Assembly (NCBI GenBank): GCA_049591615.1
Contig: JBAWFD010000101.1
Span: 22,882-86,881 of the forward strand
Reading direction: 5' to 3'
Origin: Gammaproteobacteria bacterium
Lineage (GTDB): Bacteria > Pseudomonadota > Gammaproteobacteria > Natronospirales > REEB76
DNA: 64,000 bases
The notes beneath the pieces are model-generated. The model saw only the letters and a program-made list of their open reading frames with translations, was not told where the DNA came from and ran no database searches. Shown one piece after another: positions 4,172-61,554 of this stretch. A program made the position numbers and the translations under genes. The number at the start of each line of letters is the position of its first letter. Positions within the stretch are counted from its first letter, which is position 1.

Positions 4172-4296
4172 CGGATACCAGCTGCAGGTATTGCAGTGTG
4201 CGAATGCAATATTTAGCAACAACACGATCCTCGTAAATGCAGAAGCATGCAAAGTGGCGGATAATATCCGTTCAAGTTAAGGAGCGCCGATTCCCA

Positions 4297-6850: not shown

Positions 6851-6880
6851 CCCAGCGTACTCCCATGGTTTGAACAGGTT

Positions 6881-9193: not shown

Positions 9194-9209
9194 TCAAGGT
9201 TCCCACTGC

Positions 9210-10607: not shown

Positions 10608-10627
10608 CCAGGCCCTGCCAAATAAAA

Positions 10628-13014: not shown

Positions 13015-13389
13015 ATGTCCATCAATAATATCCATGTGGATGTAGAAACAGCTTTTGTGCCGGCCCAATCGGACCCTGGCCAGAACCGCTTTGTATTCGC
13101 CTATACCATCACTATCCGTAATCAGGGCTCATTACCGGCCAAACTCCTGACCCGCCACTGGCTAATCACCGATGCCAACGGCAAGGTGCAGGAGGTACGC
13201 GGTGAAGGTGTCGTGGGCGAACAACCGCATTTGAAGCCCGGAGAAGGTTTTCGTTATTCCAGTGGCGCGATACTGGAGACTCCGGTGGGAGCCATGCAGG
13301 GTGCCTACCAACTGGTGAACGACCAAGGCGAACATTTCGATGCCCCCATAGCACCCTTCCGGCTCGCGGTGCCAGGCTTACTGCACTGA
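13015..13389 (+). CDS. apaG: ApaG (DUF525) protein
   Basis: [13 protein letters not shown]...[28 protein letters not shown]. Start is the ATG at 13015 or 13006; the TTG at 12979 is unlikely. Confidence 0.85.
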
Positions 13390-15055: not shown

Positions 15056-15056
15056 C

Positions 15057-16502
15057 ATGCAGAAACTTGCCAACTATATAGATGGTAAAACCCCCCCAGC
15101 GGCTTCGGGCGGCTGGCTTGAAGATTTTGAACCAGCCACCGGCCAGGTGTATGCGCATTGCCCTGATTCCGAAAAGGCCGATATAGACAATGCTGTCGCC
15201 GCTGCCCAGCATACCTTCCCGGCCTGGTCAGCCACGCCTGCGGCCGAGCGCGGCGAGAGGCTGCACAGACTCGCGGCGTTAATCGAACGCGATCTCGAAA
15301 AGCTGTCGCATGCTGAGAGCAAGGACTCTGGCAAACCCATCGCCCTCGCCCGCAGCCTGGATATCCCCCGGGCCGTAACCAACCTGCGTTTCTTTGCCGC
15401 CGCCGCCAGCCAGTTCGCCAGCGAATCGCATGCCATGGAATCCGGCGCCATCAACTATACGCTGCGCCCACCCCTGGGCGTGGTCGGCTGCATCTCGCCC
15501 TGGAACCTGCCGCTGTACCTGTTCACCTGGAAGATTGCTCCGGCACTCGCGGCCGGTAACTGCGTAGTGGCGAAACCTTCTGAACTTACGCCTATGACCG
15601 CCTATCTGTTCTCGGAACTCTGCATCGAAGCCGATCTGCCGCCCGGCGTGCTCAATGTTGTGCACGGCCTCGGGTCAAAAGCCGGTACGGCCCTGGTTGA
15701 ACATCCGCAGGTGAAGGCTATCTCCTTCACTGGTGGCACCCGGACCGGCGCCGACATCGCCGCTCGTGCGGGACCCAAGTTCAAGAAGTTGTCACTGGAA
15801 CTGGGCGGCAAGAACCCGACCCTGGTGTTCGCCGACTGTGATTTCGAAACCACGGTGTCGGAAACTGTGCGAGCAGCGTTCTCCAATCAGGGTGAGATCT
15901 GCCTGTGCGGCTCACGCATACTTATCGAACGCAGCCTGTATGCGCGCTTTCGCGACGCATTCGTGGCGCGCGCCCGTAGCTTGCGTCAGGGCGATCCAAA
16001 AGATGAGCGTACTGAACAAGGCGCGTTGATCTCCGCGGCACATCTGCAAAAAGTCATGGGATACGTCGAGCTCGCCCAGAAAGAGGGTGGAAAGATCCTG
16101 TGCGGAGGTCGGCGTGCAAAACTCGGCGGCCGCTGCGCCGACGGTTGGTTCGTGGAGCCGACAGTCATCGAAAACCTGGCGTCAGATTGCCGCACTAACC
16201 AGGAAGAAATCTTCGGCCCGGTGGTCACGCTGATTCCTTTCGACACCGAAGACCAAGCCGTTGCTTACGCCAATGGGACGCCTTACGGCCTCGCTGCCTC
16301 TCTCTGGAGCCGCGATATAGCGCGCTGCCACCGCGTAGCCGCGAGGCTGGAAGCTGGTCTCATCTGGATCAACTGCTGGATGCTGCGCGACCTGCGCGTG
16401 CCTATGGGCGGCGTGAAGCAGTCCGGTACCGGTCGTGAAGGCGGCTGGGAAGCCATGCGCTTCTTCACAGAAGCGCGCAACATCTGCATCAAGTATGAAT
16501 AA
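15057..16502 (+). CDS. NAD-dependent aldehyde dehydrogenase, probably 2-aminomuconate-6-semialdehyde dehydrogenase
   Basis: ALDH motifs ELGGKNP and EICLCGSR (catalytic Cys) and EEIFGPV. Context between the RidA, HAAO and ACMSD genes. Confidence 0.75.
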   Translation: MQKLANYIDGKTPPAASGGWLEDFEPATGQVYAHCPDSEKADIDNAVAAAQHTFPAWSATPAAERGERLHRLAALIERDLEKLSHAESKDSGKPIALARSLDIPRAVTNLRFFAAAASQFASESHAMESGAINYTLRPPLGVVGCISPWNLPLYLFTWKIAPALAAGNCVVAKPSELTPMTAYLFSELCIEADLPPGVLNVVHGLGSKAGTALVEHPQVKAISFTGGTRTGADIAARAGPKFKKLSLELGGKNPTLVFADCDFETTVSETVRAAFSNQGEICLCGSRILIERSLYARFRDAFVARARSLRQGDPKDERTEQGALISAAHLQKVMGYVELAQKEGGKILCGGRRAKLGGRCADGWFVEPTVIENLASDCRTNQEEIFGPVVTLIPFDTEDQAVAYANGTPYGLAASLWSRDIARCHRVAARLEAGLIWINCWMLRDLRVPMGGVKQSGTGREGGWEAMRFFTEARNICIKYE

Positions 16503-16917
16503 GCGCAGCAAGATAGCATCCACCAACGCACCAGAGCCGGTCGGGCTTTATCCGCATGCGCGGCGCGTCGGTGATCTGCTGTTCCTCTCCGGTGTAGGCC
16601 CGCGCAAGCGCGGCAGCAAAGATATCCCCGGTGTGAAGCTCGACGCCCATGGAAATGTCCTCAGTTATGAAATCGAGGCCCAGTGCCATTCGGTGTTCGA
16701 GAATGTGCGCCTGATACTGGAAGATGCCGGTTCTGGCTGGGACCGGCTGGTGGACGTGTGCGTATTCCTCACCGACATGCGGCGCGACTTCGTCACCTAC
16801 AACCGAATCTACGCCGAATACTTCAAAGATAACCAGCCCTGTCGCACCACGGTGGAAGTGACAGCGCTGCCGACGCCCATCGCCATCGAACTCAAATGCA
16901 TTGCCACGATTGACTGA
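16495..16917 (+). CDS. RidA/YjgF-family deaminase, putative 2-aminomuconate deaminase
   Basis: [25 protein letters not shown]...CRTTVEV RidA signature. 8-nt overlap with the ALDH gene. Confidence 0.7.
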
Positions 16918-16934
16918 GATTTGGGGAGGACGCC

Positions 16935-17456
16935 ATGAGCGCCATGAACGTACTCAATTTCCATAAATGGATCGACGACAACCGTCATCTGCTAAAGCCG
17001 CCAGTCGGCAACAAATGCGTCTATGACGGCGACTTCATCGTCATGGTGGTGGGTGGGCCCAATTCCCGCAAGGACTATCACTACGACGAAGGTCCGGAAT
17101 TCTTTCATCAGATCGAAGGTGAGATGCTGCTGAAGACCATGCAGGGTGGCAGGCCGGTCGATTACCCTATCCGCGCCGGCGAGATATTCCTGCTGCCGCC
17201 ACGCGTGCCGCATTCACCACAGCGTTTCGCCAACTCCGTTGGCCTCGTAATCGAGCGCAAGCGTCTGCCTGACGAACAGGATGGGCTGCTGTGGTTCTGC
17301 GAACGATGCCACAGCAAACTCTATGAGGAATACTTCAGACTGCTGAACATCGAGAAGGATTTCCCGCCGGTGTTTGACCGGTTCTTCGGCAACCTGGAGT
17401 ATCGCACCTGCAAAAAATGCGGTGCCGTGATGGATGCGCCGGACAAGAAAAAATAA
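16935..17456 (+). CDS. nbaC: 3-hydroxyanthranilate 3,4-dioxygenase
   Basis: Cupin core [18 protein letters not shown]...[16 protein letters not shown] and a C-terminal CERC...CKKC rubredoxin-like site. GGGGAGGA SD upstream. Confidence 0.9.
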
Positions 17457-17459
17457 CAC

Positions 17460-18470
17460 ATGCTGAAGATAGACATCCACACCCACATCCTGCCCAGCAA
17501 CTGGCCGGACCTGAAGGAAAAATACGGCTACGGCGGTTTCGTGCAGCTGCATCACCACGGTCCAGGTTGCGCACGCCTGCTGAAAGACGGTGAATTTTTC
17601 CGGGAGGTGCAAGCCAATTGCTGGGATGGCGAGGTCCGGCTGCGCGAATGCGCTGCCCATGGAGTGGGCGTGCAGGTATTGTCCACCGTACCGGTGATGT
17701 TCAGCTATTGGGCAAAGCCCAAAGATACCTTGGACCTGTCCCGCCTGTTGAACGATCACATCGCCGGCCTGGTGGCAGAACACCCGCGCCGCTTCGTCGG
17801 CCTCGGCACACTGCCACTGCAATCACCGGAGCTGGCCATCCGCGAACTGCAACGTTGCATCCAAGAGCTGGGATTTCCTGGTGTACAGATCGGCACGCAT
17901 GTGAACGGCATGAACCTGGACGATCCGCAGCTGTTTCCGGTGTTCGAAGCCGCCCAGGAACTGGGTGCTGCAGTCTTCGTGCATCCCTGGGACATGCTCG
18001 GCAAGGAGCGTATGCGCAAATACTGGACACCGTGGCTGGTGGCCATGCCGGCGGAGACCTCATTGGCCGTGTGCTCGATGATCTTCGGTGGCATATTCGA
18101 ACGTCTGCCCAAACTGCGTGTGTGTTTCGCCCATGGGGGTGGTGCATTTCCTGCCACCCTGGGGCGCATCGAGCATGGCTTCCAGGTGCGTCCCGATTTG
18201 TGCGCCGTGGACAACAGCATCAATCCCGCAAATTATCTCGGCAAGTTTTATGTGGATTCATTGGTGCATCACGCGGGCATGTTGAACTATATGATCGATC
18301 TCCTGGGTGCGAACAGCATCGCACTCGGCAGCGACTATCCATTTCCCCTGGGTGAACATATGCCGGGCCAGCTCATCGAATCCATGCCGCTTGACACCGA
18401 GACCAAACAGCGGCTTTTGCATGGTACCGCTCTGGAGTGGTTGCGGCTCGATAAGGCGCAGTACCTGTGA
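17460..18470 (+). CDS. nbaD: 2-amino-3-carboxymuconate-6-semialdehyde decarboxylase (amidohydrolase family)
   Basis: IDIHTHILP...FVHPWDM...FAHGGGAFP...[10 protein letters not shown]. Confidence 0.85.
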
Positions 18471-19243
18471 ATATCCTGCGTTTTGAAATCGGCAACCATC
18501 ATTGCAGCGTGGACACGGCGCGTGGTGTATCGCTGGCGATACCCCTGCAGTTCGACGGTCCACAGCCCAACTTTTTCGCGGCACCCACCGCCAGTGCCGA
18601 AGCGCTGCAGACGGATGACTTCATCGGCGATACCCATCAGGGTGGCAGCTGCAATGTCAGCCATTACCACCTGGTCCCCCACTGCAATGGCACGCACACG
18701 GAATGCATCGGTCACGTGGTGGACGATGCCGCCACCGTGACCGAGCAGCTGCGTCAATCACTGCTGCCGGCCACCCTGGTCACGCTTGCGCCGCGTCATA
18801 ACCTCATCGATGCGGCGCTGATCAAGATGAGCCTGCAGCATCATCCGATGCCCGAACTGCATACGGCCTTCATCATCCGCACCCTGCCCAACACCCGGGA
18901 AAAGCTCTCACACCGGTACGATGTTGTGCCGCCGGCGTATCTGGCTGAAGAAGCCGTAGGCTTGCTGGTGGCTGCCGGCGTCGAACACCTGCTGGTGGAT
19001 CTGCCATCCCTCGATCCCATGCACGACGAGGGACGGCTGGCGGCACACCGCGCTTTCTGGGGCTTGCCCGCCAGCAGCCGACGCCTAGCCGATGCCAAGC
19101 GGCCGCGCGCCACCATCACCGAGATGATCTATGTGCCCGATCAGGTCAAGGACGGCTACTACCTGCTGGACCTGCAGATCCCGGCGTTCATGAGTGACGC
19201 TGCACCCAGCCGACCTGTAATCTATCCGGTAGAAATGAAATGA
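18467..19243 (+). CDS. Cyclase-family protein, putative kynurenine formamidase with a variant metal motif
   Basis: [12 protein letters not shown] resembles the cyclase/KynB HxGTHxDxPxH motif with D->E and P->I. ATGA-type overlaps with both neighbours. Confidence 0.5.
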
Positions 19244-20520
19244 TCTTCCGCACCGATGCCAAGTTCGCCGCTGAGATGGACCGGTCTGACCCGTTGGCCG
19301 ATTATCGCTACAAATTTCACATTCCAACCTACGAGGATGGCGAAGAAATATATCTATGCGGCAACTCTCTCGGGTTACAGCCGAAAGCCACCGAACGTTA
19401 CCTACATGAGGAACTGGAGGACTGGGCGCGTCTGGGTGTGAAGGGCCATTTCGCCGGACGCCGCCCATGGATGCCTTATCACGAACTGTTCAGCGAGCGC
19501 AGCGCGCGCCTGGTGGGCGCCGAACCGCTGGAAGTCATCAACATGAATTCACTCACCGTCAACCTGCACCTGATGCTGGTGAGTTTCTACCGGCCTACGG
19601 CAGCACGCAACCGCATACTCATCGAGCGCAGCGCCTTTCCCTCCGATCGATACGCGGTGGCATCCCAGATCCGTTTCCACGGCTTCGACCCGGACACCAG
19701 CCTGGTGGAACTCGCATCTGCCGGAGCCCTGCGGACACTGGATATAGATGAGGTGGAGGCCCTCATCCGTGCCGAAGGTGAGCGTCTTGCGCTGGTGATG
19801 CTACCGGGGGTGCAGTACGCCAGCGGCCAGGTATTTGATATGGCACGCATCACGCGCGCGGCCCATGCGGTGGGCGCGGTAGCCGGTTTCGACCTGGCGC
19901 ATGCCGCCGGCAACTTGCCGCTGCAGCTCCACGATTGGGACGTGGATTTTGCCGTATGGTGCAACTACAAATATATGAATGCCGGTCCTGGTGCGGTAGC
20001 CGGCTGCTTCGTGCACGCGCGCCACGCCCGCGCGCTTGAGCTGCCGCGCTTTGCCGGCTGGTGGGGTCACGACAAGGCTACGCGCTTCCGTATGGGTCCG
20101 GAGTTCGTGCCCATGCCCGGCGCGGAAGGCTGGCAGATCAGCAACCCACCAATCCTGGCGCTGGCACCCTTGCTGGCGTCCTTGGAGATCTTCGATGACG
20201 TAGGCATGCCTAAACTGCGGGAGAAATCCCTGCAGCTCAGCGGTTATCTTGAATTCCTGCTGGACCAGCGACTGCCAGAAGCAGTTGAGATACTCACGCC
20301 GCGTAATCCTACCGAACGCGGTTGCCAGCTATCGCTGCGGATCTCAGGCAGCCACAGTCGTGCCAGGGAGATCTTTACGCGCCTGGAGCAGGCCGGCGTG
20401 ACCGCCGACTGGCGCGAACCGGATGTCCTGCGTATTGCTCCGGTGCCGCTCTACAACACTTATGCCGACGTGTACCGCTTCGTGGACATCCTTGATAAGG
20501 TGGTCAGTGACGCGTTATAA
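19240..20520 (+). CDS. kynU: Kynureninase
   Basis: IYLCGNSLGLQPK, DLAHAAGN and the WCNYKYMNAGPG PLP-lysine region. Confidence 0.9.
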   Translation: MIFRTDAKFAAEMDRSDPLADYRYKFHIPTYEDGEEIYLCGNSLGLQPKATERYLHEELEDWARLGVKGHFAGRRPWMPYHELFSERSARLVGAEPLEVINMNSLTVNLHLMLVSFYRPTAARNRILIERSAFPSDRYAVASQIRFHGFDPDTSLVELASAGALRTLDIDEVEALIRAEGERLALVMLPGVQYASGQVFDMARITRAAHAVGAVAGFDLAHAAGNLPLQLHDWDVDFAVWCNYKYMNAGPGAVAGCFVHARHARALELPRFAGWWGHDKATRFRMGPEFVPMPGAEGWQISNPPILALAPLLASLEIFDDVGMPKLREKSLQLSGYLEFLLDQRLPEAVEILTPRNPTERGCQLSLRISGSHSRAREIFTRLEQAGVTADWREPDVLRIAPVPLYNTYADVYRFVDILDKVVSDAL

Positions 20521-20572
20521 AACGCGTACATTAACCCCGCACAAAGATAATTAAAAAATCGCTTTTGTCATT

Positions 20573-21934
20573 ATGCATACTGATAAAGAGATTACATTGA
20601 TTGGCGCCGGCCTGGCCGGCAGCCTGCTGTCCATCTTCCTGGCGCGCCGTGGTCTCCAAGTGACGGTCTACGAACGCCAGCCCGACATGCGGCATCACGA
20701 CATCGCTGCCGGCCGATCCATCAATCTGGCCCTGGCCCAGCGTGGCATCCGGCCACTCAAAGAGGCTGGCATATTCGAACAGGTCTCGAAGCTCCTGATC
20801 CCCATGCGCGGACGCATGCTGCACGATGAGCAGGGCCACACGACACTGACACCTTACGGCCGTAAATCCACCGAAGTTATTCATTCGATCTCGCGGCCTG
20901 GTCTGAACAGATTGCTCATGAATGCCGCGCAGGCCGCGGGTGCCAACATACTGTTCCAGCAGCGTTGCGAGGACATGGATTTCGAAAATTCTACACTGAC
21001 ACTCAGTGATCAATCCGGCAAACAATATTCCATCAATGCCCACAGCGTGATCGCCACGGATGGCGGCGGATCGACGCTACGCCAGGCCCTGGTGAAACGG
21101 CTTGGCGTCAACGTGGTGGAAGATATCCTGCCCCACGGTTACAAGGAACTCGCCATCAACGCTGGTGCAGACGGCCACCATCGTTTGGATCGCGAAGCCT
21201 TGCACATCTGGCCACGCGGCGGTTACATGCTCATCGCCCTGCCGAACCTGGACGGCAGCTTCACGGTGACCTTGTTTTTGCCCATGCAAGGCGACCCCAG
21301 TTTTGCTTCCCTGGATAAGCCCAGGGCCGTGCTGAAATTCTTTGAGAAGAATTTCCCCGACGCTCTGCAGCTATTACCCAATCTGGAAAATGAATTCTTT
21401 GCACATCCCATCGGATTCATGGGCACGGTGCATTGCGCGCGCTGGCATGCGGATGGCAAGCTTCTGTTGCTGGGAGATGCCGCCCACGCCATCGTGCCTT
21501 TCCACGGTCAGGGCATGAACTGCGCCTTCGAGGATTGCCTGCTCCTGGACCGATGTCTGGATAAATACGGCGATGATTGGCAAAGCATATTCAGCGAGTT
21601 CGAGACCTTGCGTCGCCCGGATACCGAAGCCATCGCCGAGATGGCACTGGAAAACTACGTGGAGATGCGTGCTATGGTACGCAATTCCAGGTTCCAGCTG
21701 CAAAAGCAACTTGGCTTCCTGCTGGAAGAGCGTCACCCAGGCATATTCGTGCCACGCTACTCCATGGTGATGTTCCATCACTTACCTTATTCCGAGGCCA
21801 GGCGCCGCGGTGCGATTCAGCAACGGATACTTGACGATCTGACCGCTGATACTACGTCCCTCGAGCAGGTGGATTTTGAGCGCGCCGATGCGCTGATCGA
21901 TGAAACTCTCGGAACCAGCAGGATAGAGGCATGA
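20573..21934 (+). CDS. kmo: Kynurenine 3-monooxygenase (FAD)
   Basis: ITLIGAGLAGSLLSIFLARRG dinucleotide fold. LLGDAAHAIVPFHGQGMNCAFED FAD motif. Confidence 0.88.
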   Translation: MHTDKEITLIGAGLAGSLLSIFLARRGLQVTVYERQPDMRHHDIAAGRSINLALAQRGIRPLKEAGIFEQVSKLLIPMRGRMLHDEQGHTTLTPYGRKSTEVIHSISRPGLNRLLMNAAQAAGANILFQQRCEDMDFENSTLTLSDQSGKQYSINAHSVIATDGGGSTLRQALVKRLGVNVVEDILPHGYKELAINAGADGHHRLDREALHIWPRGGYMLIALPNLDGSFTVTLFLPMQGDPSFASLDKPRAVLKFFEKNFPDALQLLPNLENEFFAHPIGFMGTVHCARWHADGKLLLLGDAAHAIVPFHGQGMNCAFEDCLLLDRCLDKYGDDWQSIFSEFETLRRPDTEAIAEMALENYVEMRAMVRNSRFQLQKQLGFLLEERHPGIFVPRYSMVMFHHLPYSEARRRGAIQQRILDDLTADTTSLEQVDFERADALIDETLGTSRIEA

Positions 21935-22983
21935 ACACTCATCCTTTCCTTCAGGGCCTGGGCAGCAACCCCGATTTCCTACTGCAGAATTTTGACCTGG
22001 CAAATCGTCGTGCACTGGTGGTGCGGGTCAACGAGAGTGTTTACCGGGAAGCATCCTTCCTGGATGACCGCATATTAAATCCCCAGACGGAAGGATTCTG
22101 GCTGCCGCTGGAATCTGTGTTGCAGCAGACGGGCCAGCTTACACCCGCTAAGCCGCACTATATTTTCCATGTTGGGCATTGCGGTTCCACACTCATTTCG
22201 CGTCTGCTCGCGGAACTGCCTCATTGTCTACCGTTGCGGGAACCGATGTCGCTTTTAACTCTTGCAGTTGCCAGACGCGAACTGGGCCGTGTTTCTTCCT
22301 GGTTGACGACTGCGCAATGGAACCAGCTGCTACAGACTGCCATCAGCTCGCTCGCCAGGACTTACCGGAAATCTGATAAATCCCTGATTAAGGTCACCAG
22401 TAATGCAGGCAACCTGCTGGAATCCCTACTACCAGTATCGGAAGGGGACTCGCATATCTTGATGATGTATATCAGTCTGGAATCCTATCTGGCGGTTATG
22501 TTGCGGACTCAGGATCTTCGCGCCAGCATCCATGCTTTTTCACCTGTATGGATGACAGATTTCTGCCGTCTGACGGGAAGAACTGATCTGTGTTTAGCTG
22601 AACTCGGCGATGCACAACAAATCACTCTTAAATGGCTTGTTATCTTGATGCTGTTCGTGCGGGCGGGAACATCATCACAGTCTGAGTCACAATTGCTCAA
22701 CTTCGACAAATTCCTCATGAATCCTCTGGAGCGATTCATGCAGATAACCGGATTATTTAAACTTGAATGCGACATGGAAAAAGCTCGACAGCTGCTTGAT
22801 GGGCCTATGATGCAGAGATATTCCAAGATTCCAACGCAGAGCTTCAATCACACGCAACGCAATAGCGAACTGCGGGACGCGCGTCAGAAATTCCAGCCTG
22901 AGATTAATGCTGGCCTCAAGTGGGCAGAGACGCTATGTCGCGAAATACCCGCACTTGCGTCTGTGGCCGCTTATCTCGGTTAA
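21931..22983 (+). CDS. Hypothetical protein, sulfotransferase-fold-like
   Basis: HYIFHVGHCGSTLISRLLAELPHCLPLREP resembles the PAPS 5'-phosphosulfate-binding loop (G-x-x-R/x-S-G-S-T-L-L...EP). ATGA overlap with kmo. GC is visibly lower (~40-47% in sampled lines). Confidence 0.4.
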   Translation: MNTHPFLQGLGSNPDFLLQNFDLANRRALVVRVNESVYREASFLDDRILNPQTEGFWLPLESVLQQTGQLTPAKPHYIFHVGHCGSTLISRLLAELPHCLPLREPMSLLTLAVARRELGRVSSWLTTAQWNQLLQTAISSLARTYRKSDKSLIKVTSNAGNLLESLLPVSEGDSHILMMYISLESYLAVMLRTQDLRASIHAFSPVWMTDFCRLTGRTDLCLAELGDAQQITLKWLVILMLFVRAGTSSQSESQLLNFDKFLMNPLERFMQITGLFKLECDMEKARQLLDGPMMQRYSKIPTQSFNHTQRNSELRDARQKFQPEINAGLKWAETLCREIPALASVAAYLG

Positions 22984-43321: not shown

Positions 43322-44428
43322 TTAAGCAGTAATTGCAAGCATCCGCTCCAATGCGGTCTTTGCCAGTCTTGCATCGGTTTCCGGTACCTTGATCCGATTG
43401 ACTAGGTTGCCTTCGGCCAGATTCTCTAAGGTCCAGGCGAGATGCTGCGGATCGATACGGAACATAGTAGAGCACATGCATACCATGGGCGACATGAAAT
43501 GCACACTGACGCCCTTGTGCTTCACTTCCTCATGCAGGCGGTTGACCAGGTTGAGTTCCGTGCCCACCAGCCAGCGGGAACCGGCTTCGGCAGCATGCAC
43601 AGTCGTCTGGATGAATTCGGTGGAGCCTACATAATCGGACTTCAGACACACCTCGAAAGTGCATTCCGGGTGGCAGATGATTTTGGCAGCGGGATATTTC
43701 TGCTTAAAGTTGTCTATGTGTTCCGGACGGAACATCTGGTGTACTGAACAGTGTCCATTCCATAGCAGGATTTTTGCCTTGATAATTTGTTCTTTCGTGA
43801 GTCCGCCCATGGGCTGGTTGAAATCCCACACGTCCATCTCGTCCATCGGCACGCCCAGTTTGTAAGCGCTCCAGCGGCCCAGATGCTGGTCGGGGAAGAA
43901 CAGCACTTTGCCCCGCTGCTTGAGCGCCCACTCCAGAATCCCGCGGGCGTTGGTGCTGGTGCAGACGATGCCGCCATGTCGGCCGCAGAAAGCCTTCAGG
44001 TCCGCAGCCGAATTGATATAGGTGATGGGCGTGATCTCTTCATCCGGCTCCAGCGCAGTCGCTAGTTCACGCCAGGCCTTCTCCACCTTGGCGAGATTCG
44101 CCATGTCGGCCATGGAACAGCCGGCGGCCAGATCCGGCAACAACACCGTCTGTTCAGGGCGCGAGAGGATATCCGCCACCTCTGCCATGAAATGCACGCC
44201 GCAGAACACGATGGTCTCGGCATCCACCTGGGAAGCGAGGCGCGAGAGCTTAAGCGAATCGCCGGTGAGATCGGCGTGGCGATAGACTTCTTCGCGCTGG
44301 TAATGATGGCCGAGGATCACCGCGCGGCCCCTGAGTTTGGCTTTGGCCGCATGAATGCGTGCGTCGCAGGTTTCTTCTTCGAGCGACGTATACAGATCGA
44401 ATGCCAACGCAGGAACTGCCACGCTCAC
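43322..44428 (-). CDS. nadA: Quinolinate synthase
   Basis: AVILGHHYQ...FCGVHFMAE...CSMA...TSTNA...HPEC. GTG start at 44428 or 44422. Confidence 0.9.
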   Translation of the reverse strand: MSVAVPALAFDLYTSLEEETCDARIHAAKAKLRGRAVILGHHYQREEVYRHADLTGDSLKLSRLASQVDAETIVFCGVHFMAEVADILSRPEQTVLLPDLAAGCSMADMANLAKVEKAWRELATALEPDEEITPITYINSAADLKAFCGRHGGIVCTSTNARGILEWALKQRGKVLFFPDQHLGRWSAYKLGVPMDEMDVWDFNQPMGGLTKEQIIKAKILLWNGHCSVHQMFRPEHIDNFKQKYPAAKIICHPECTFEVCLKSDYVGSTEFIQTTVHAAEAGSRWLVGTELNLVNRLHEEVKHKGVSVHFMSPMVCMCSTMFRIDPQHLAWTLENLAEGNLVNRIKVPETDARLAKTALERMLAITA

Positions 44429-46690: not shown

Positions 46691-47245
46691 TTATGCTAAC
46701 TCCTGCCAATCAAGGATATTGTCTAACGGATGATTCATCACCTTATGCTCAAGAAGCGATTCGCTGATGGCATCTTTTTTGGTTCCAGTCCCGCGCACTG
46801 CTTCGAGGTATACGTTCAGGCTTTTAGTACTGCGTAACACAGTCGCGATCTTCAGATATTCAGGCAATTCAACAGAGCCTTTGAGTTTCAGGATAGCCAC
46901 GCCTTTATTGGAGCTCTTCGCAAAGCCGATCGCATAGGGAATCCACCAGGATTTGCAAGTCTCTTTGCTCACCAAACTCAAGATATGGGTCGAAAGCAGT
47001 ATCCCACGTTCTATGCATTTGGTGACGCGCGCTGGCTCTTTCAGCAATGCATCCATCTCGATGTCGGCATCGGTCTCATCGAAATAAACATCCAGGCCTC
47101 CATGCTCCATGATGTAATTTGCGATCGCATGCACCACGTTCCTGTCGATCTGGAAATGGGATATGTAGATGCAGGATCCGGCATTACCTGCTTTGGCGGC
47201 GAGTGCATGTTGCTCTGTCAGTAATGCTCTATTGCGTCCAGCCAC
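46691..47245 (-). CDS. TIR-like domain protein (orphan)
   Basis: CIYISHFQIDRNVVHAIANYIMEHGGLDVYFDE...ILSLVSKETCKSWWIPYAIGFA follows the bacterial TIR / DUF1863 pattern (FISH..D...L...G..V..D ... S.W...E.G). GTG start preceded by a TAAGGAG SD. Low GC. Confidence 0.45.
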   Translation of the reverse strand: MAGRNRALLTEQHALAAKAGNAGSCIYISHFQIDRNVVHAIANYIMEHGGLDVYFDETDADIEMDALLKEPARVTKCIERGILLSTHILSLVSKETCKSWWIPYAIGFAKSSNKGVAILKLKGSVELPEYLKIATVLRSTKSLNVYLEAVRGTGTKKDAISESLLEHKVMNHPLDNILDWQELA

Positions 47246-53073: not shown

Positions 53074-54150
53074 TTACACCGGGTAAGCTCCGACACTGTT
53101 TAATAATCCAACCGCTTCATCAAACCCTTGCGCGATATTCATATTCTGCACTGCCTGTCCCGCCATGCCCTTCACCAGATTATCCAGCGCAGCCATGAGC
53201 ACCACGTTTCCGTCTTTCTCATGTACGGCGAGGTCGCAGAAATTGCTGCCCACAACAGCAGCGACACGCGGTGTGTCTTCCACCAGCCGCACGAACGGCG
53301 CATCCCGGTAGAAGTCCATACATTTTTTCCTGAGTGACTTCGCGTTCAATCCGATAGCGGTCGGTGGGTGTAGTTGTACAGTGGCAAATATTCCTCGCAC
53401 CAGCGGCGCTGAGTGCGGTACGAAGGCCAAGCTATAACCATTGGTTTTTTCTGCATCCAGCAGGCGTGTAACTTCCGCTTCGTGTTGATGATTCAGCACT
53501 TTATAAGCACGAAAGTCATTGGCACGCGTCGGGTGGTGCGTAGTCTCGGTGGGCGTGGCGCCGGCGCCGGATGAACCGGTGGTCGCGCTCACCGCGATGA
53601 ATCCCAGGTCTTTCAGTCCTGCCAGCGGCAGCAGGGCGAGCTGGATGGCGGTGGCGAAACAGCCGGGGCTGGCGATGCGCCTGGCGCCTTTGATCTTTTC
53701 TGTTTGCCATTCCGGCAGACCATAAACAAAACTGCCAAGCGCCTGTGGGTACGGATGTGGTTTTCCGTAGGCACGCTCGAAGGCTTCCGCATCATCCAGC
53801 CGGAAATCACCGGATAGATCGATGAGCGTGAGTCTGTCCGATAGTTTGTGCTTCGACCAATCCGCTTCCAGACCAGCCAACTGTTGCGCCAGTTCGAAAT
53901 GCGGCATGGCGGAAAACACTATGGGATTGTCCGATTCCGCGAACGCAGACCAGTCGGGCTGTGCCTCGAAGTTGCCGTCCACCAGGCTGCGAAGGTTTGG
54001 ATGTACTTTCCAGAACGGTTGGTCCGCGTATTTGCGCGAGACGGCGCGGATACTCTCCACCTGCGGATGCTGCGACAGCAGCCGCAGTAGTTCGCCGCCG
54101 CCGTAACCAGAGCCACCCAAAATATAAACACTGATTGTTGTCGTTGTCAT
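53074..54150 (-). CDS. argC: N-acyl-gamma-glutamyl-phosphate reductase
   Basis: VYILGGSGYGGGELLRLL...ASPGCFATA (active-site Cys). Confidence 0.9.
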   Translation of the reverse strand: MTTTTISVYILGGSGYGGGELLRLLSQHPQVESIRAVSRKYADQPFWKVHPNLRSLVDGNFEAQPDWSAFAESDNPIVFSAMPHFELAQQLAGLEADWSKHKLSDRLTLIDLSGDFRLDDAEAFERAYGKPHPYPQALGSFVYGLPEWQTEKIKGARRIASPGCFATAIQLALLPLAGLKDLGFIAVSATTGSSGAGATPTETTHHPTRANDFRAYKVLNHQHEAEVTRLLDAEKTNGYSLAFVPHSAPLVRGIFATVQLHPPTAIGLNAKSLRKKCMDFYRDAPFVRLVEDTPRVAAVVGSNFCDLAVHEKDGNVVLMAALDNLVKGMAGQAVQNMNIAQGFDEAVGLLNSVGAYPV

Positions 54151-54199: not shown

Positions 54200-55312
54200 T
54201 TATTCACCCCTCACCCTACCCTCTCCCACAAGGGGAGAGGGTGAAAGAGAGACTTTCGTAGTGTTCACAACCCCACGCTTGGCAATTACATCCAGCAGAT
54301 GATTGCCGAGCGCCTTTGCATGGGTAAGCGCATTGATCGCAGGCTTGTCTACAGCACGTTCTACAAAACGTACGCCCACATTATTGTCGGTACACGGACC
54401 GGTGACCAAATCCACATCGATGTCGTACTCACTCCGCAGATGCTCCACGCCACCGGCCACGCCCACCGGATCATTGGCGCAGAACACGAAGGCCGCGGTC
54501 AGCGCGCGCAGTTCCGCATCCGCAAGTATCGCCTGCACGCCATATTCGCCCATGATGCCGTCGCCGGTCTCCGCTACGATGACATCGAAACGGCGTGTGG
54601 AGAGTTCCGCGAAGATGGTCTTGGCCACCTGCGCCGCGCTCTCCGGTCCGGTGCATGCAATGCCCGCGTCGGTGAAATCCAGCGTCACTTCGGCACCATA
54701 GTCGCGCATGCTCAGTGTATCGCGCATCAGGGAGACGCCGGTGAGCTTGGCACCGCCCACGCGGTAACCCGCCTGACTGAGCCTGCGCACGATTGCGCAA
54801 GCGGCGGCTGTCTTACCGGCGTTCATGCAGGTGCCGGCCACGTAGATGACTTTGCAGTTAGGCACCTTGCCATCCGCTTTGAGCGCGCCCATGCGGATAT
54901 TCGCGGGTTCCCCGAGCCGCGACTGGAACTCCGGGTACACCAGCACCTGGCCCAGCACCTCGAACTCGAAAGGTTGGCCCACATCCGGGTTGTGGGATAT
55001 GCATTCGCCGATGACGCCGCCCATATTCAGGATGTGCAGCTTCTGGCCGGGCGCAACGCTTTTCGGCAGCACACCTTCGTAACCATGCAGGGCGTTGCGA
55101 TGACCCAAAGCGCCCACCACGATGTCGTCGCCGTGCAGCACGTTCAGGCGGCCGTGTACATCCTCCAGCTGGTTATAGCCGGACTTGTCGCCAAGGATGC
55201 GGCCCGCCAGCACCGCGCCGTGTTCCGCGCGCACCTCGGCTGACAGGGTGAGCATGCGATCCAGCTTCAGGTTGCGCGTAACTGATGCGATCTTGTCCGC
55301 GCTGATCCTCAT
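54200..55312 (-). CDS. Uncharacterised protein with an unassigned N-terminal domain and a C-terminal dethiobiotin-synthetase/CobQ/DUF1611-like P-loop domain
   Basis: ATGA overlap with the argG stop (55309-55312). Walker-A-like VAGTCMNAGKT (aa 158-167) and DVIVAETGDG (aa 243-252). The last ~15 aa (SLSPSPLVGEGRVRGE) are encoded by a REP-like repeat. Start set at MRISADK. Confidence 0.6.
   Translation of the reverse strand: MRISADKIASVTRNLKLDRMLTLSAEVRAEHGAVLAGRILGDKSGYNQLEDVHGRLNVLHGDDIVVGALGHRNALHGYEGVLPKSVAPGQKLHILNMGGVIGECISHNPDVGQPFEFEVLGQVLVYPEFQSRLGEPANIRMGALKADGKVPNCKVIYVAGTCMNAGKTAAACAIVRRLSQAGYRVGGAKLTGVSLMRDTLSMRDYGAEVTLDFTDAGIACTGPESAAQVAKTIFAELSTRRFDVIVAETGDGIMGEYGVQAILADAELRALTAAFVFCANDPVGVAGGVEHLRSEYDIDVDLVTGPCTDNNVGVRFVERAVDKPAINALTHAKALGNHLLDVIAKRGVVNTTKVSLSPSPLVGEGRVRGE
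54205..54243 (+). repeat. REP-like intergenic hairpin repeat (copy b)
   Basis: CACCCCTCACCCTACCCTCTCCC-ACAA-GGGGAGAGGGTG. It overlaps the 3' end of the unknown arg-operon CDS. Confidence 0.7.
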
Positions 55313-56505
55313 TTGTTTTCTCCTGCACGTAACGCAAGTATCTGCTGCACGCCATAGAGTTTGGCGAAACCCGCGGCCTCCGCGCCGCTCCACAGACGGT
55401 TGGCTTCACCATAACTTGCAACTTTGGCATCCATAAGTGAACGCGGCGAGCGCACGCCATCCACAGCAAACGTGCGCGGATACAGCGTGAGTTTCACCTC
55501 GCCCGTCACCGGTTTTTGGCTGGACTTCAGGAAGGCTTCCAGATCCCGCGCCAGAGGATCAAAGAAATGGCCTTCATGCAGCAATTGACCGTAGAGATTG
55601 CCCAGGTTGTCCTTCCAGAATTGCTGCTTGCCGGTGAGGGTAAGTTTTTCCAGCTCACGATGTGCACCGATCAGCAGATGCGCCGCCGGCGCCTCGAAGC
55701 CGACGCGTCCCTTGATGCCCAGGATGGTGTCGCCCAGATGCACGCCGCGGCCGATTCCGTATGGGCGGCCGATAGAATTCAGTTCTGCGATGAGCGCTAC
55801 CGGATCCAACGATTGACCATCTACAGCAGCAGGCACGCCCTGCTTGTAGCCCAATGTCATGGGCCTGGATGTGAGTTTCGCGGCATCGATCTCACCGCCG
55901 GGAAACACCGCTTCCGGTAGCACACTCCAGGAATCCAGCGTCTCGCGTCCACCCACGGAGGTGCCCCACATGCCTTCGTTCACGGAATAATGTTCGGTCT
56001 TTTCAGGAAGCTCGAAGCCGTGCTTCTTCAGATAGGCACGCTCCTCGGCACGGCTCAATGCCAGCGTGCGGATCGGGGTGATGAGTTCCAGTTCGGGAGC
56101 CAGGGCGCGGAATGCCACGTCGAAACGCACCTGGTCGTTGCCGGCGCCGGTGGAGCCGTGCGCCAGTGCGGTGGCGCCGAGTCTCTTTGCAAGCGCCACC
56201 ACTTCCGCCGCCTGGGCCACGCGCTCCGCCGATACACTCAGTGGATACAGATTGCCGCGCAGCACGTTGCCATAGATGAGATAGCGAAGATAACGGTCGA
56301 AGAGATCCGCGCGCGCGTCGATGGTGTGATGGGCTTGCGCGCCCAGTTTCGGAGACAGGTCTTCGATGCGCCGCAGTTCCCCGGTACTGAAGCCACCAGT
56401 ATTCACCGTGACGGTGGTGACCTGGTAACCCTGCTCCCGAAGATGGATGACGCAGAAGGAGGTATCCAGTCCGCCGGAGAAAGCCAGCACTACATGTTTA
56501 GTCAT
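55309..56505 (-). CDS. argG: Argininosuccinate synthase
   Basis: VVLAFSGGLDTS...AHGSTGAGNDQVRF. Start at MTKHVV (56505), an 8-nt overlap with argH. Confidence 0.93.
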   Translation of the reverse strand: MTKHVVLAFSGGLDTSFCVIHLREQGYQVTTVTVNTGGFSTGELRRIEDLSPKLGAQAHHTIDARADLFDRYLRYLIYGNVLRGNLYPLSVSAERVAQAAEVVALAKRLGATALAHGSTGAGNDQVRFDVAFRALAPELELITPIRTLALSRAEERAYLKKHGFELPEKTEHYSVNEGMWGTSVGGRETLDSWSVLPEAVFPGGEIDAAKLTSRPMTLGYKQGVPAAVDGQSLDPVALIAELNSIGRPYGIGRGVHLGDTILGIKGRVGFEAPAAHLLIGAHRELEKLTLTGKQQFWKDNLGNLYGQLLHEGHFFDPLARDLEAFLKSSQKPVTGEVKLTLYPRTFAVDGVRSPRSLMDAKVASYGEANRLWSGAEAAGFAKLYGVQQILALRAGENK

Positions 56506-57886
56506 GCCACTCACCACCGATCTTCTTATGCCAGATGTCTTTTTCACATTTTTCAATACGGCTTCGAGTCGCCGAGATCCAGCGTTCTGCGTGTTTGCAT
56601 TCTTCCGCGATGGAGCCCAGCCCCAGGTTGTCTAGGCCACCAATATGGATAGACTTCAATGCTTGGCGATCCGGCTTGAACGTTCCATCCTGCAGCTGCT
56701 GCGCGACTCGCTGGTATGCATCGCGGAACGGGACACCCTGCTGAGCCAAACGGGTGGCTTCATGGGCGGCATACAGCTCATCGCCACAGGCAGCGCGTGC
56801 GCGCTCGGCATTTACTTTAAGACCCGGCACCAGTTGCACGAGCGTGGCCAACAACGCGTGCGCCGTATCCAGGGCTTCGAACAGCGGTTTTTTCAACAAC
56901 TGGAAGTCGCGGTGGTAATTGGATGGCAGGCCGCCGGCCAGCTCCTGCAGCATCGCCACATGCCCGCGCAGTTCGCGGCAGCGGGCACGCGCCAGCTCCA
57001 CCACGTCCGGGTTGCGTTTCTGGGGCATGATGGACGAGCCGGTGGTGAAGGCCTCTGGTAACTCCAGGTATCCGAATTCAGGCATCGAATACAGCGCCAC
57101 ATCCCAGAGAAACTTCTCCAATACCAAGCCGATGGATGCCATCCCATTCACCAGAGCCAGTTCATGGCGGCCGCGGGAATTCATCACATCGGCGGGGCTG
57201 ATCTGAACGCCGGAGAATCCCAGTAGCCCGGCGAGATACTCCCGATCAAGCGGTAGGGGCACACCGAAACCGGCGGCAGCGCCCAGAGGGCAGCGGTCCA
57301 GGCGTGCGTATACTGCCTGCATCGCCTGCAGTTCTTCCCCGAGTCCCGCAGCGAACGCACCCGCCCACAATCCAAAACTCGAAGGCATGGCGCGGCGCAG
57401 ATGCGTGTAACCCGGCAGGCTCTCATCTGCATGTGCATGCGCGAATTGGATGAATGCATCCGCTAGCTGTGCAGTCTGTTTTGCGATACTGAGCAAAGCC
57501 TCGCGCATGTACAGGCGCAGCGCCAAGATTACCTGGTCGTTGCGCGAGCGGCCCAGATGGATGCGTTTGCCCGCATCACCCAGTTGTTGCGTGAGCAACT
57601 GCTCGATGGCGGTGTGGCAGTCTTCCTGAGCCGGGTCGATACCGAGTTCGCCAAGGCGCGCGTGTAACGCGATCTTGGCCAAGGCATCCACCAGCACCTG
57701 AGCATCTTTCAACGCTATCAGACCCGCGTGCGCCAGCATGCGTGCATGCGCGGCGCTGCCGAGCGCATCGAAACTCAACAGGCGCTTATCCAGTTCCGGA
57801 TCATCGCCCACGCTGAGGCGATGCATGGCTGCGTCCAGCGGTAGACCCTTTTCCCAGAGACGCGATGGACCTTTTGCGTCGTTCAT
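56498..57886 (-). CDS. argH: Argininosuccinate lyase
   Basis: GRSRNDQV and GSSIMPQKRNPDV signatures. ATGA overlap with argB. Confidence 0.93.
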   Translation of the reverse strand: MNDAKGPSRLWEKGLPLDAAMHRLSVGDDPELDKRLLSFDALGSAAHARMLAHAGLIALKDAQVLVDALAKIALHARLGELGIDPAQEDCHTAIEQLLTQQLGDAGKRIHLGRSRNDQVILALRLYMREALLSIAKQTAQLADAFIQFAHAHADESLPGYTHLRRAMPSSFGLWAGAFAAGLGEELQAMQAVYARLDRCPLGAAAGFGVPLPLDREYLAGLLGFSGVQISPADVMNSRGRHELALVNGMASIGLVLEKFLWDVALYSMPEFGYLELPEAFTTGSSIMPQKRNPDVVELARARCRELRGHVAMLQELAGGLPSNYHRDFQLLKKPLFEALDTAHALLATLVQLVPGLKVNAERARAACGDELYAAHEATRLAQQGVPFRDAYQRVAQQLQDGTFKPDRQALKSIHIGGLDNLGLGSIAEECKHAERWISATRSRIEKCEKDIWHKKIGGEWHD

Positions 57887-58818: not shown

Positions 58819-59817
58819 TCAGTTCAACAGCCGGTGCAGCAGCACCCGCTGTACATGGAAACGGTTCTCGGCCTCGTCGATGACGCGGCTGTGGGTGCCG
58901 TCCAGCACTTCATCGGCCACTTCCACATTGCGCCGCACCGGTAGGCAATGCAGGAAGATCGCATCGCTGCTCGCACGGGATAATGTTTTATCGGTGATCA
59001 GCCAGTCTTTGTGGGCGGCGATGCGCGCCGTCGCGCCATCCGCTGCCACCGGTTTGGTCGCCGGACCCCAGGCCTTTGCATAGATGACCTGGCTACCGCT
59101 CACAGCATGCTGTTGATCCGTAGTGACCGTCACCAAACCACCGCTTTGCCGTGCATAGGTCTGCGCCTCAGCCAGCACCGCAGGATGCAGATCGAAACCC
59201 GGTGGATGCGCGACCCGCACTTCGCAGCCAGCAGCCGCAGCCGTGAGTAAAAACGAATGCGGTACGGCTTTCGGCAGCGATTTGATATGCGGCGCCCAAG
59301 TAAGCGTCACCGGCAGTTTCTTCGTTGTCCCGAAACTTTCACGCACTGTCAACAGATCCGCCAACCCCTGGCAGGGATGTTCGCGTGCTGACTCCATGCT
59401 GATGACCGGCACGCCCGCCAGCTCACAGAAAGCGTTCATCACCGGATCAGCTGCGTCCGCATCATCGTCCTGGAGCGCGCCGAACGTGCGCACCGCCAAC
59501 GCGTCCACATAACGGCCCAGTACCGGGATGGCTTCGCGGATATGCTCCGGCCGGTCGCCGTCCATGACCACACCTGTGCGGTCTTCCAGTTTCCAAATGC
59601 CGCTGCCCACCTCCAGCACGATGGCATGGCCGCCGCCGCGCAACATGGCGGCTTCGAATGAAGCACGTGTGCGCAGCGAGGGATTGAAGAACACCATGCC
59701 GAGAATCTTGTGGGCCAGATGCGCACCGGGCGTTTGGTTTTTCCAGGCCAGTGCTTCGGCGAAAACATTTGCGACGCCGGCCACACCCAGATCGGCGATG
59801 CGGGTGAAATGCTTCAT
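58819..59817 (-). CDS. argF': N-acyl-L-ornithine carbamoyltransferase (AOTCase/SOTCase family, Pro at the specificity position)
   Basis: FFNPSLRTR, VVMDGDRPEHIRE, HPCQGLADL, YAKAWG, HCLPVRRN and DEAENRFHVQ closely track my recollection of Xanthomonas AOTCase. Classical OTCase would have HPTQ. Confidence 0.85.
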   Translation of the reverse strand: MKHFTRIADLGVAGVANVFAEALAWKNQTPGAHLAHKILGMVFFNPSLRTRASFEAAMLRGGGHAIVLEVGSGIWKLEDRTGVVMDGDRPEHIREAIPVLGRYVDALAVRTFGALQDDDADAADPVMNAFCELAGVPVISMESAREHPCQGLADLLTVRESFGTTKKLPVTLTWAPHIKSLPKAVPHSFLLTAAAAGCEVRVAHPPGFDLHPAVLAEAQTYARQSGGLVTVTTDQQHAVSGSQVIYAKAWGPATKPVAADGATARIAAHKDWLITDKTLSRASSDAIFLHCLPVRRNVEVADEVLDGTHSRVIDEAENRFHVQRVLLHRLLN

Positions 59818-60971
59818 GCCGCCATGCCTTCAGTCTGAAAAGCTGCAATGCTCGCCAGTAATTTTTCCACGGCTTGATCAGTGACAGTCAGCGGCGGCAT
59901 GAGTCGTAATATCCCTGGGTCGTCGGAACCGCCCACCAGAATTTGGTGTTTCAATAAATGGGTTTTGAGTGCCTTGGCTTGTGTGGCCGCATCCAGCCCC
60001 AGCAACAGACCTTCGCCGCGTACTTTGAGTACGACCCCATTGCTCAGGCCGCTGCGAATAGTTTTCGCCAGATTATTGGCACGCTCCATCAGATTCTCGT
60101 CGACGATCACCTTGAGTGTCGCGATCAGCGCTGCACAAGCCAAGGGACCGCCACCAAAAGTGCTACCGAGATCGCCGGGTTTGAGGGCTGAGGCCACCCC
60201 ATCGTTCATAAGCAGGCCGCCCATGGGCACGCCCGAGGCCATACCTTTCGCGCAGGTAATCATGTCGGGCGTAACGCCATAGAAATTCGCCGCAAACGGC
60301 ATGCCCAATCGGCCTATGCCGGTTTGCACCTCATCAAAAATCAGCAGTGCGCCGGCTTGCGTGCATTTCTGCCGCAGCGCAGAAAACCATTTCGCGTTCG
60401 CAGTTTTCACGCCGGCCATGGACTGGATCGGTTCCACGATCACCGCCGCTACCTGCGAGAAATCAGCGGATTCGAGTGCCGCAGGGTCCGCGAACGGCAG
60501 GAATTGGGTCGGCGCCAATAACGTCTGGTAATCCTTTCTCAAGGCCGACGAATCGGTGACCGACAGCGCCAGTAACGAGCGCCCGTGGAACGCGCCCTGA
60601 AACGCGACCAAGTGGCTGCGTCTGGTGAGCTTGATGGCGACCTTGAGAGCGCTCTCATTGGCTTCGGCGCCGGAGTTGCAGAAGAACACCGCTGCCATGC
60701 CAGCGCCACCGAATTCCACCAACGCTTGCGCAGCCCGGTCACGCACCGGCAACTGTGCGGCCGCCGAATAGAAGATCAGCTTGCGGGCCTGCTCGGTGAT
60801 GGCCGCGGCTACCGCCGGATGGCAATGGCCGGTGCTGGCCACGCAATGGCCACCGTAGAAATCCAGGTAGGCCATACCCTGGTCATCGAAAACCCGCTCG
60901 CCTTGTCCTGAGACCAGCGGAAATGGGTATGGCGCATAGGTGGGGAGTAACGGTGAAACAGCGGTTTTCAC
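59814..60971 (-). CDS. argD: N-acyl-ornithine aminotransferase (class III PLP)
   Basis: YLDFYGGHCVASTGHCHP...LIFDEVQTGIGRLG...TFGG. GTG start at 60971 preceded by GGGGGG. ATGA overlap with argF'. Confidence 0.88.
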   Translation of the reverse strand: MKTAVSPLLPTYAPYPFPLVSGQGERVFDDQGMAYLDFYGGHCVASTGHCHPAVAAAITEQARKLIFYSAAAQLPVRDRAAQALVEFGGAGMAAVFFCNSGAEANESALKVAIKLTRRSHLVAFQGAFHGRSLLALSVTDSSALRKDYQTLLAPTQFLPFADPAALESADFSQVAAVIVEPIQSMAGVKTANAKWFSALRQKCTQAGALLIFDEVQTGIGRLGMPFAANFYGVTPDMITCAKGMASGVPMGGLLMNDGVASALKPGDLGSTFGGGPLACAALIATLKVIVDENLMERANNLAKTIRSGLSNGVVLKVRGEGLLLGLDAATQAKALKTHLLKHQILVGGSDDPGILRLMPPLTVTDQAVEKLLASIAAFQTEGMAA

Positions 60972-61137: not shown

Positions 61138-61554
61138 ATGACACTCGATGAAGCCATCCTACAGTTGGTGGAACAGCGTGAAATCACCGATCAATCGGTT
61201 TTTTTGGGCCTGTTGAAACACATCGGCCATGCGGTCACCCAGCCGACCCTGTCACGACACATGAAGAAATTGGGCGTCCATAAGGTGACCGGCCGTTACC
61301 AGCAGGTCGAACCGTTGCCGGAGAAACTGCCAGTCTTCTCCCTCACCCAGGTGCCGCCCAATCTGGTGATCATCCGTACGCGCCCCGGTTATGCCCAGCC
61401 ATTGGCGGTCAAACTTGATCAGCAGAAGATCGAAGGTGTCGGGGGCACGCTAGCAGGTGATGACACGGTGTTCATCGCCGTGGCTTCGCCGGCCAGGTTC
61501 AGGGCAGTGGCCGATGCCGTAGAGGTGTTGCTATCCGGCGGAGCGGCTGCCTGA
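61138..61554 (+). CDS. argR: Arginine repressor
   Basis: N-terminal wHTH (ITDQSVFLGLLKHIGHAVTQPTLSRHMKKLG) and a C-terminal GTLAGDDTVFI oligomerisation/arginine-binding motif. Divergent from the arg operon. Confidence 0.85.
   Translation: MTLDEAILQLVEQREITDQSVFLGLLKHIGHAVTQPTLSRHMKKLGVHKVTGRYQQVEPLPEKLPVFSLTQVPPNLVIIRTRPGYAQPLAVKLDQQKIEGVGGTLAGDDTVFIAVASPARFRAVADAVEVLLSGGAAA

Follow-up and report, generated by a model that had tools for sequence, protein, structure and literature searches.

A minus-strand open reading frame (ORF) in a 64,000-nucleotide stretch of contig JBAWFD010000101.1, assembled from a Gammaproteobacteria bacterium and hereafter referred to as the window, encodes ArgF', a knotted acyl-ornithine carbamoyltransferase whose three specificity residues are those of N-succinyl-L-ornithine transcarbamylases (SOTCases) and not those of N-acetyl-L-ornithine transcarbamylases (AOTCases). 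On the strength of these residues, the likely substrate of ArgF' is N-succinyl-L-ornithine, which it would carbamoylate in a succinylated arginine pathway whose first step would fall to X, a P-loop protein encoded in the same operon.

The ORF runs from an ATG start to a TGA stop, and both OTCace_N and OTCace of Pfam are detected in its 332-residue product. The transcarbamylase core motifs are found at residues 47-51 (SLRTR, for SxRT), 147-150 (HPCQ, for HPxQ) and 290-293 (HCLP, for HxLP), within longer stretches that begin at residues 43 (FFNPSLRTR), 147 (HPCQGLADL) and 290 (HCLPVRRN). The product matches the NCBIfam equivalog model of N-acetylornithine carbamoyltransferase, NF003384, with 408 bits (E=2.8e-122; cut-off 288), and a search of the PDB retrieves the AOTCase of Xanthomonas campestris (E~1e-66) and the SOTCase of Bacteroides fragilis (E~1.5e-65) ahead of classical ornithine transcarbamylase (OTCase) structures, the best of which reaches 4.5e-46 and the rest less. 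Two OTCase models stay below their cut-offs (TIGR00658, 192.8 vs 280.85 bits; NF001986, 209.5 vs 306), and the SMG ornithine-binding motif of the 240's loop (DxxxSMG) was not found in the ArgF' sequence. Hallmarks of the knotted group are a proline-rich loop, an extended 80's loop bearing a substrate-binding Trp and an extended 120's loop (PMC4581275); ArgF' has the proline-rich loop WAPHIKSLPKAVPHS and the Trp (W75), and its 80's and 120's loop regions appear equivalent to those of the X. campestris and B. fragilis enzymes, to which they align without gaps. Because the NF003384 and PDB matches are strong, the OTCase models fall short and the SMG motif is absent, ArgF' is placed by its sequence in the knotted acyl-ornithine group and not among the OTCases. 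An earlier, sequence-only reading of this DNA had made the same family call from the three longer motifs, all of which are present.

The residue that carries the prediction is Pro90. HMMER aligns residues 1-103 of ArgF' without a gap to residues 23-125 of the X. campestris chain, in which a 20-residue tag has to be discounted, so that Pro90 stands opposite native residue 92. A three-way MAFFT alignment likewise sets Pro90 of ArgF' against Pro90 of the B. fragilis SOTCase and Glu92 of the X. campestris AOTCase in the gap-free block VMDGD-x-[P/E]-EH (the B. fragilis sequence used is identical to PDB 1JS1 across 318 residues), and the top PDB match of ArgF' is 3l04, the E92P mutant of the X. campestris enzyme. 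The sequence-only reading had paired this Pro with Glu92 by eye, against a stretch of the X. campestris sequence. That stretch (DGDTEEH) was correct, the codon named for the Pro is the CCG of Pro90, and a proper multiple alignment with characterized AOTCase and SOTCase sequences puts Pro, not Glu, at the switch position.

Glu at position 92 is reported to confer acetyl specificity and Ala, Pro, Ser or Val succinyl specificity (Shi et al. 2007, as summarized in PMC7311316 and bioRxiv 10.1101/2024.10.14.618325); we cite this mutagenesis rule through a 2015 review and two GapMind papers. The residues that discriminate AOTCases are Glu92, Asn185 and Lys302, at which SOTCases have A/S/P/V/Q, P and V/I/E, respectively (PMC4581275). 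With Pro90, Pro182 and Glu299 at the three positions, ArgF' is of the SOTCase type at all three and of the AOTCase type at none, which supports, as far as sequence goes, the central claim of the sequence-only reading that the switch is succinyl-type. The substrate-binding residues W75, E142, H177, K248 and R295, equivalent to W75, E142, H176, K236 and R278 of the B. fragilis enzyme, are kept. In the B. fragilis enzyme the succinyl carboxylate is anchored by H176, R178 and R278, whose counterparts in ArgF' are H177, K179 and R295, two being identical and one a conservative Arg-to-Lys replacement. That the acyl group is succinyl we infer because of the published mutagenesis, which was done on two other enzymes.

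The same signature extends across the close relatives of ArgF'. In the 120 homologues listed (P0001-P0120; 68-100% identical), the first position is Pro or Ala and the third Glu or Val without exception, and the second is Pro in 119. Those that bear a name are called acetylornithine or N-acetylornithine carbamoyltransferase and come mostly from uncultured Gammaproteobacteria of soil and freshwater, with few exceptions in labelling, among them a Vicinamibacterales record and another labelled "Deltaproteobacteria". One of them, P0001, from a metagenome-assembled genome (MAG) labelled Gammaproteobacteria bacterium, is identical in protein sequence to ArgF'. When representatives at 50% identity were searched exhaustively, 47 clusters proved to retain the family's substrate-binding residues; 46 combine a residue other than Glu at position 92 with Pro at 185, and the Glu/Asn/Lys triplet is confined to the Xanthomonas-like cluster, which in a quick neighbour-joining tree is nested among the succinyl-type clusters. 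Most of the family thus carries the signature predicted to confer succinyl specificity. The sequence-only reading had described succinylated intermediates as otherwise associated with Bacteroidetes; its succinyl signature stands, but not this restriction, since 46 of the 47 clusters carry the signature. The ArgF' clade lies apart from the Bacteroides clade in the same tree, on which ground a recent horizontal transfer from Bacteroidetes was rejected.

These data also bear on the name under which such proteins are deposited. NF003384 scores the X. campestris enzyme at 649 bits, ArgF' at 408 and the B. fragilis SOTCase at 280, so that a name derived from this model reflects overall similarity and not specificity. 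The cut-off of 288 lets in the 120 homologues, all with the succinyl-type signature, and narrowly shuts out the true SOTCase; their acetyl name is thus likely to be wrong throughout, as a systematic misannotation.

On the minus strand, argF' is one of seven genes of an operon, argD-argF'-argB-argH-argG-X-argC, with argR divergent from it (Table 1). The genes are tightly coupled: at three junctions the start and stop codons overlap as ATGA, and 8 nucleotides are shared by argH and argG. AA_kinase is the sole Pfam domain of ArgB, which carries no fused acetyltransferase domain. The region between argD and argR contains repeated TAATGCGA-like and TAATGCAA motifs, as well as ATGCATGCATGGATGAATAAAATGG, which may be ARG boxes, that is, putative ArgR operators; a promoter scan of this region gave nothing above chance. 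The divergent placement of argR is kept in related loci.

Table 1. Position of argF', its specificity codons and the associated arginine genes within the window
Feature	Position	Strand	Basis or remark
argF', knotted acyl-ornithine carbamoyltransferase, predicted SOTCase	58819..59817	-	ORF, NCBIfam, PDB matches, three-way alignment
Pro90 codon (CCG), specificity switch; equivalent to X. campestris Glu92 and B. fragilis Pro90	59548..59550	-	Alignments; PDB match 3l04
Pro182 codon, in the proline-rich loop; equivalent to X. campestris Asn185	59272..59274	-	Alignment and rule of PMC4581275
Glu299 codon (RRNVE); equivalent to X. campestris Lys302	58921..58923	-	Alignment and rule of PMC4581275
argD-like class-III (acyl-ornithine) aminotransferase	59814..60971	-	Start probably GTG at 60971; stop overlaps argF' start (ATGA)
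argB, acyl-glutamate kinase, 306 aa	57883..58803	-	TIGR00761, 205 bits
argH, argininosuccinate lyase	56498..57886	-	ATG overlaps argB stop (ATGA)
argG, argininosuccinate synthase	55309..56505	-	Start probably ATG at 56505, overlapping argH end
Gene X, P-loop protein, 370 aa	54200..55312	-	ATG overlaps argG stop (ATGA)
argC	53074..54150	-	TIGR01850, 345 bits
argR, arginine repressor, divergent from the operon	61138..61554	+	TIGR01529, E=5.8e-22, under cut-off
Divergent argD/argR control region, 166 bp, strongly AT-rich in a GC-rich genome	60972..61137	.	Sequence reading

Homologues of X that are 63-93% identical are found in Gammaproteobacteria MAGs, Holophagaceae and Myxococcota. Their N-terminus, MRIxxDKIASVTRNL, is conserved, and the start of X was set at the ATGA overlap with argG for this reason. 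The AlphaFold model of X (predicted local distance difference test score, pLDDT, 79.5) suggests two domains, an all-beta domain at the N-terminus and a P-loop domain at the C-terminus. The latter contains an invariant GTCMNAGKT, in which the spacing is that of GTDTEVGKT in dethiobiotin synthetase, and an invariant VAETGDG. Only two family models, the P-loop domain DUF1611_C and MobB, match X, and both do so weakly. X of the window scores 16.7 bits against Pfam DUF1611_C (E=0.005; cut-off 25), around the P-loop only, and 23 of 32 members of the X family match this model at E<=0.01, the best at 5.5e-6. Among the top 50 PDB matches that Foldseek returned for the model, generic SIMIBI P-loop NTPases (signal recognition particle GTPases, dethiobiotin synthetase and MeaB) lead; 7XRJ, the structure of the D-glutamate acetyltransferase DgcN, is not among these 50. 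A profile search of PDB sequences with X retrieved the dethiobiotin synthetase P-loop only. The N-terminal all-beta domain (about 125 residues), modelled alone with a pLDDT of 87, had no PDB match at E<=0.001 in Foldseek. In typical DUF1611 proteins the N-terminal domain is, by the Pfam description, Rossmann-like, which would set X apart from them.

Scanning a single genome for each species revealed relatives of X in at least 522 species, and the X-bearing arg clusters span Gammaproteobacteria, Myxococcota, Acidobacteriota and Verrucomicrobiota. X lies inside the arg cluster in all 82 loci that were fetched, the usual order being argR | argD-argF'-argB-(argE)-argH-argG-X-argC. In the 64 ArgF' proteins adjoining X, Glu never occupies the switch position, which is Ala in 41, Pro in 15, Thr in 4, and Ser and Gln in one each, among others; Pro at 185 is found in every one of them and Glu at 302 in 62. 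Three of the public records in this comparison carry labels that the sequences make implausible. L011 and L013 are labelled as MAGs of Bacillota and Natronospirales, respectively, yet their operons share about 80% identity with that of the Gammaproteobacteria, and L040, labelled Comamonas sp. KCTC 72670, has a Myxococcus-type cluster whose argE shares 85% identity with the M. stipitatus gene. It is likely that these records were mislabelled or their bins contaminated.

In most of the myxococcotal, acidobacteriotal and verrucomicrobial loci, argB and argH flank a gene of the M20 ArgE/DapE family. It is absent from all gammaproteobacterial loci, that of the window included, in which argB directly adjoins argH or overlaps it. 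The operon of the gammaproteobacterial lineage has presumably lost an ArgE-type deacylase that the other three phyla kept. Whether the M20 proteins of the relatives' clusters are DapE-like or ArgE-like is left undecided by NCBIfam, all matches being below cut-off with the two types interleaved. X and the M20 deacylase co-occur in these clusters; X is therefore not the deacylase, and the unfilled step is the first one. X is probably an N-succinylglutamate synthase. The sequence-only reading had asked which enzyme makes N-succinylglutamate here; X, in the same operon, now offers a candidate, but one already proposed in a preprint (bioRxiv 10.1101/2024.10.14.618325). As to mechanism, X may use succinyl-CoA, by analogy with DgcN, or ATP and succinate, by analogy with the dethiobiotin synthetase-like P-loop. 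It seems doubtful that X is something other than a plain succinyl-CoA transferase and would either ligate succinate to glutamate at the expense of ATP or recycle the succinyl group of N-succinylcitrulline onto glutamate. Recycling of this kind, as ArgJ performs with acetyl, would make a separate desuccinylase unnecessary.

In the pathway that we propose, glutamate would be N-succinylated, probably by X, and the resulting N-succinylglutamate would be phosphorylated by ArgB, reduced by ArgC and transaminated by ArgD to N-succinyl-L-ornithine. ArgF' would transfer the carbamoyl group from carbamoyl phosphate onto this compound's delta-amino group, yielding N-succinyl-L-citrulline, from which citrulline would be released by a deacylase presumably encoded outside the window, elsewhere in the genome, before its conversion to arginine via ArgG and ArgH. 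Genes of the ArgA, ArgJ or ArgE type were not found in the 64-kb window. Pfam scans of its other large ORFs (>=180 aa) detected no M20, GNAT or ArgJ domain, and tblastn with the cluster M20 proteins of Myxococcus and Holophagaceae returned nothing from it at E<=1e-3. Clustering of all ORFs that flank 14 argE-less gammaproteobacterial loci revealed no conserved replacement hydrolase near these operons, the recurring ones being limited to arg genes, shadow ORFs and genes of local synteny (SDR, ABC transporter, GST, DUF502).

Several observations weigh against the succinylated pathway. Arg178, a succinyl anchor of the B. fragilis enzyme, is replaced in ArgF' by Lys, as in the acetyl-specific enzyme of X. 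campestris. The Pro/Pro/Glu triplet is uncharacterized, the sole characterized SOTCase being Pro/Pro/Ile. NF003384 accepts ArgF' yet narrowly rejects the B. fragilis SOTCase. The window lacks a recognizable desuccinylase gene, and the sole characterized relative of X, the very distant DgcN, is an acetyltransferase according to the preprint (bioRxiv 10.1101/2024.10.14.618325). An alternative would be that ArgF' is promiscuous, or that its substrate is an ornithine bearing an N-acyl group other than acetyl or succinyl, which X would set. Besides the uncharacterized triplet, the negative charge of Glu299 where B. fragilis has Ile, and Lys179 in place of Arg178, agree with such an enzyme, as do the features of X, which is unrelated to the GNAT-type ArgA, has ATP-using enzymes such as dethiobiotin synthetase and not acyl-CoA transferases as its top structural matches, and has an N-terminal domain with no solved structural counterpart. 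We nevertheless regard this as unlikely, given that Glu at position 302 is listed among the SOTCase-type residues (PMC4581275), that the basic residues H177, K179 and R295 are all there and could hold a terminal carboxylate, and that nothing positive points to another acyl donor.

It is similarly improbable that the database name is correct and that ArgF' is an N-acetyl-L-ornithine carbamoyltransferase working with acetylated intermediates as in Xanthomonas. Such an assignment would agree with the NF003384 score, with the acetyl name borne by every named homologue and with the acetylation of glutamate by the only characterized, distant relative of X, as the preprint describes it. It is opposed by the absence from ArgF' of Glu92, Asn185 and Lys302 alike and, by the accounts given in PMC4581275, PMC7311316 and bioRxiv 10.1101/2024.10.14.618325, by the conversion of an AOTCase into a SOTCase upon replacement of Glu92 with Pro, Ala, Ser or Val. 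The NF003384 score measures overall similarity and not the specificity residues, a true AOTCase such as that of X. campestris scoring far higher, and the names of the homologues are automatic annotations that trace to the same model. A classical OTCase acting on free L-ornithine is highly improbable, for the general motifs SxRT, HPxQ and HxLP and the sub-threshold matches to OTCase models are offset by scores far under the cut-offs, by the missing SMG motif and by OTCase structures whose matches are weaker, by at least 20 orders of magnitude, than the ones to AOTCase and SOTCase.

A succinyl-ornithine substrate for ArgF' thus remains our preferred reading, and comparison with characterized systems shows where the window departs from them. 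The SOTCase of B. fragilis (PDB 1JS1, 2FG6, 2FG7; P90E mutant, 2G7M) belongs to the same knotted family and is 42% identical to ArgF', with which it shares Pro at the switch and in the proline-rich loop, the WAPH motif, an extra residue before HPxQ and an encoding gene located within an arginine biosynthesis cluster. It differs in having Ile where ArgF' has Glu299 and Arg178 where ArgF' has Lys179. Its partners in Bacteroides are a GNAT-type, BT3761-like synthase and the M20 desuccinylase BT3549 (PMC7311316), whereas the operon of the window contains X and no deacylase. The AOTCase of X. campestris (PDB 3KZC and others; E92P mutant, 3L04), likewise from a proteobacterial host, has the same fold, is 38% identical to ArgF' and aligns to it without gaps over most of its length; the changes E92 to Pro, N185 to Pro and K302 to Glu set the two apart. 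The Xanthomonas ArgB presumably carries a fused acetyltransferase domain, which the ArgB of the window does not.

The closest precedent is found in Appendix 2 of the 2026 GapMind preprint, which describes an arg cluster of Steroidobacter denitrificans that lacks ArgA and predicts that an X-type protein encoded in it, a very distant homologue of DgcN (PDB 7XRJ; Foldseek E=1.4e-7), is an alternative N-succinylglutamate synthase (Price et al., bioRxiv 10.1101/2024.10.14.618325). According to the same source, homologues of X never co-occur with homologues of ArgA, and position 92 is Ala, Pro, Ser or Val in 90% of 70 neighbouring ArgF' proteins. The likeness to the window was drawn from the preprint's description, Steroidobacter not being among our fetched loci: both clusters comprise argB, argC, argD, argF', argG, argH, argR and a gene for a remote DgcN/DUF1611-like protein, and neither includes a recognizable ArgA or ArgE. 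The window matches the picture given in the preprint, and the finding, while correct as a prediction from sequence, was already anticipated.

Elsewhere in the window, LptD, SurA, PdxA and KsgA (RsmA) are encoded at 6632..12405 in the classical gammaproteobacterial order, which supports the gammaproteobacterial synteny seen in the sequence-only reading; the gene for an ApaH-like metallophosphatase comes next, at 13389..14243. An apparent kynurenine/2-amino-3-carboxymuconate-semialdehyde cluster occupies 15009..22983 and includes an aldehyde dehydrogenase, an ACMSD-like protein of the Amidohydro_2 type, a kynurenine formamidase-like member of the cyclase family, a kynureninase and an FAD monooxygenase, together with a 350-aa ORF that has no Pfam match; the quinolinate synthase NadA is encoded at 43322..44428. 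That 350-aa ORF (21931..22983) is one of four with no Pfam match at E<=1e-8, the others being at 2453..4171 (572 aa), 4237..5127 (296 aa) and 46691..47245 (184 aa); some of these may not be genes.

The specificity rule applied here dates from 2007, and the same conclusion for clusters of this type has already been published as a preprint (bioRxiv 10.1101/2024.10.14.618325). The operon offers a compact set for two unproven steps, namely a synthase X that is not of the GNAT type and a gammaproteobacterial desuccinylase. If the proposed substrate is correct, ArgF' and its 120 homologues are wrongly named wherever they are called "N-acetylornithine carbamoyltransferase", and succinylated arginine biosynthesis would be the common state of the family and not a peculiarity of Bacteroidetes.

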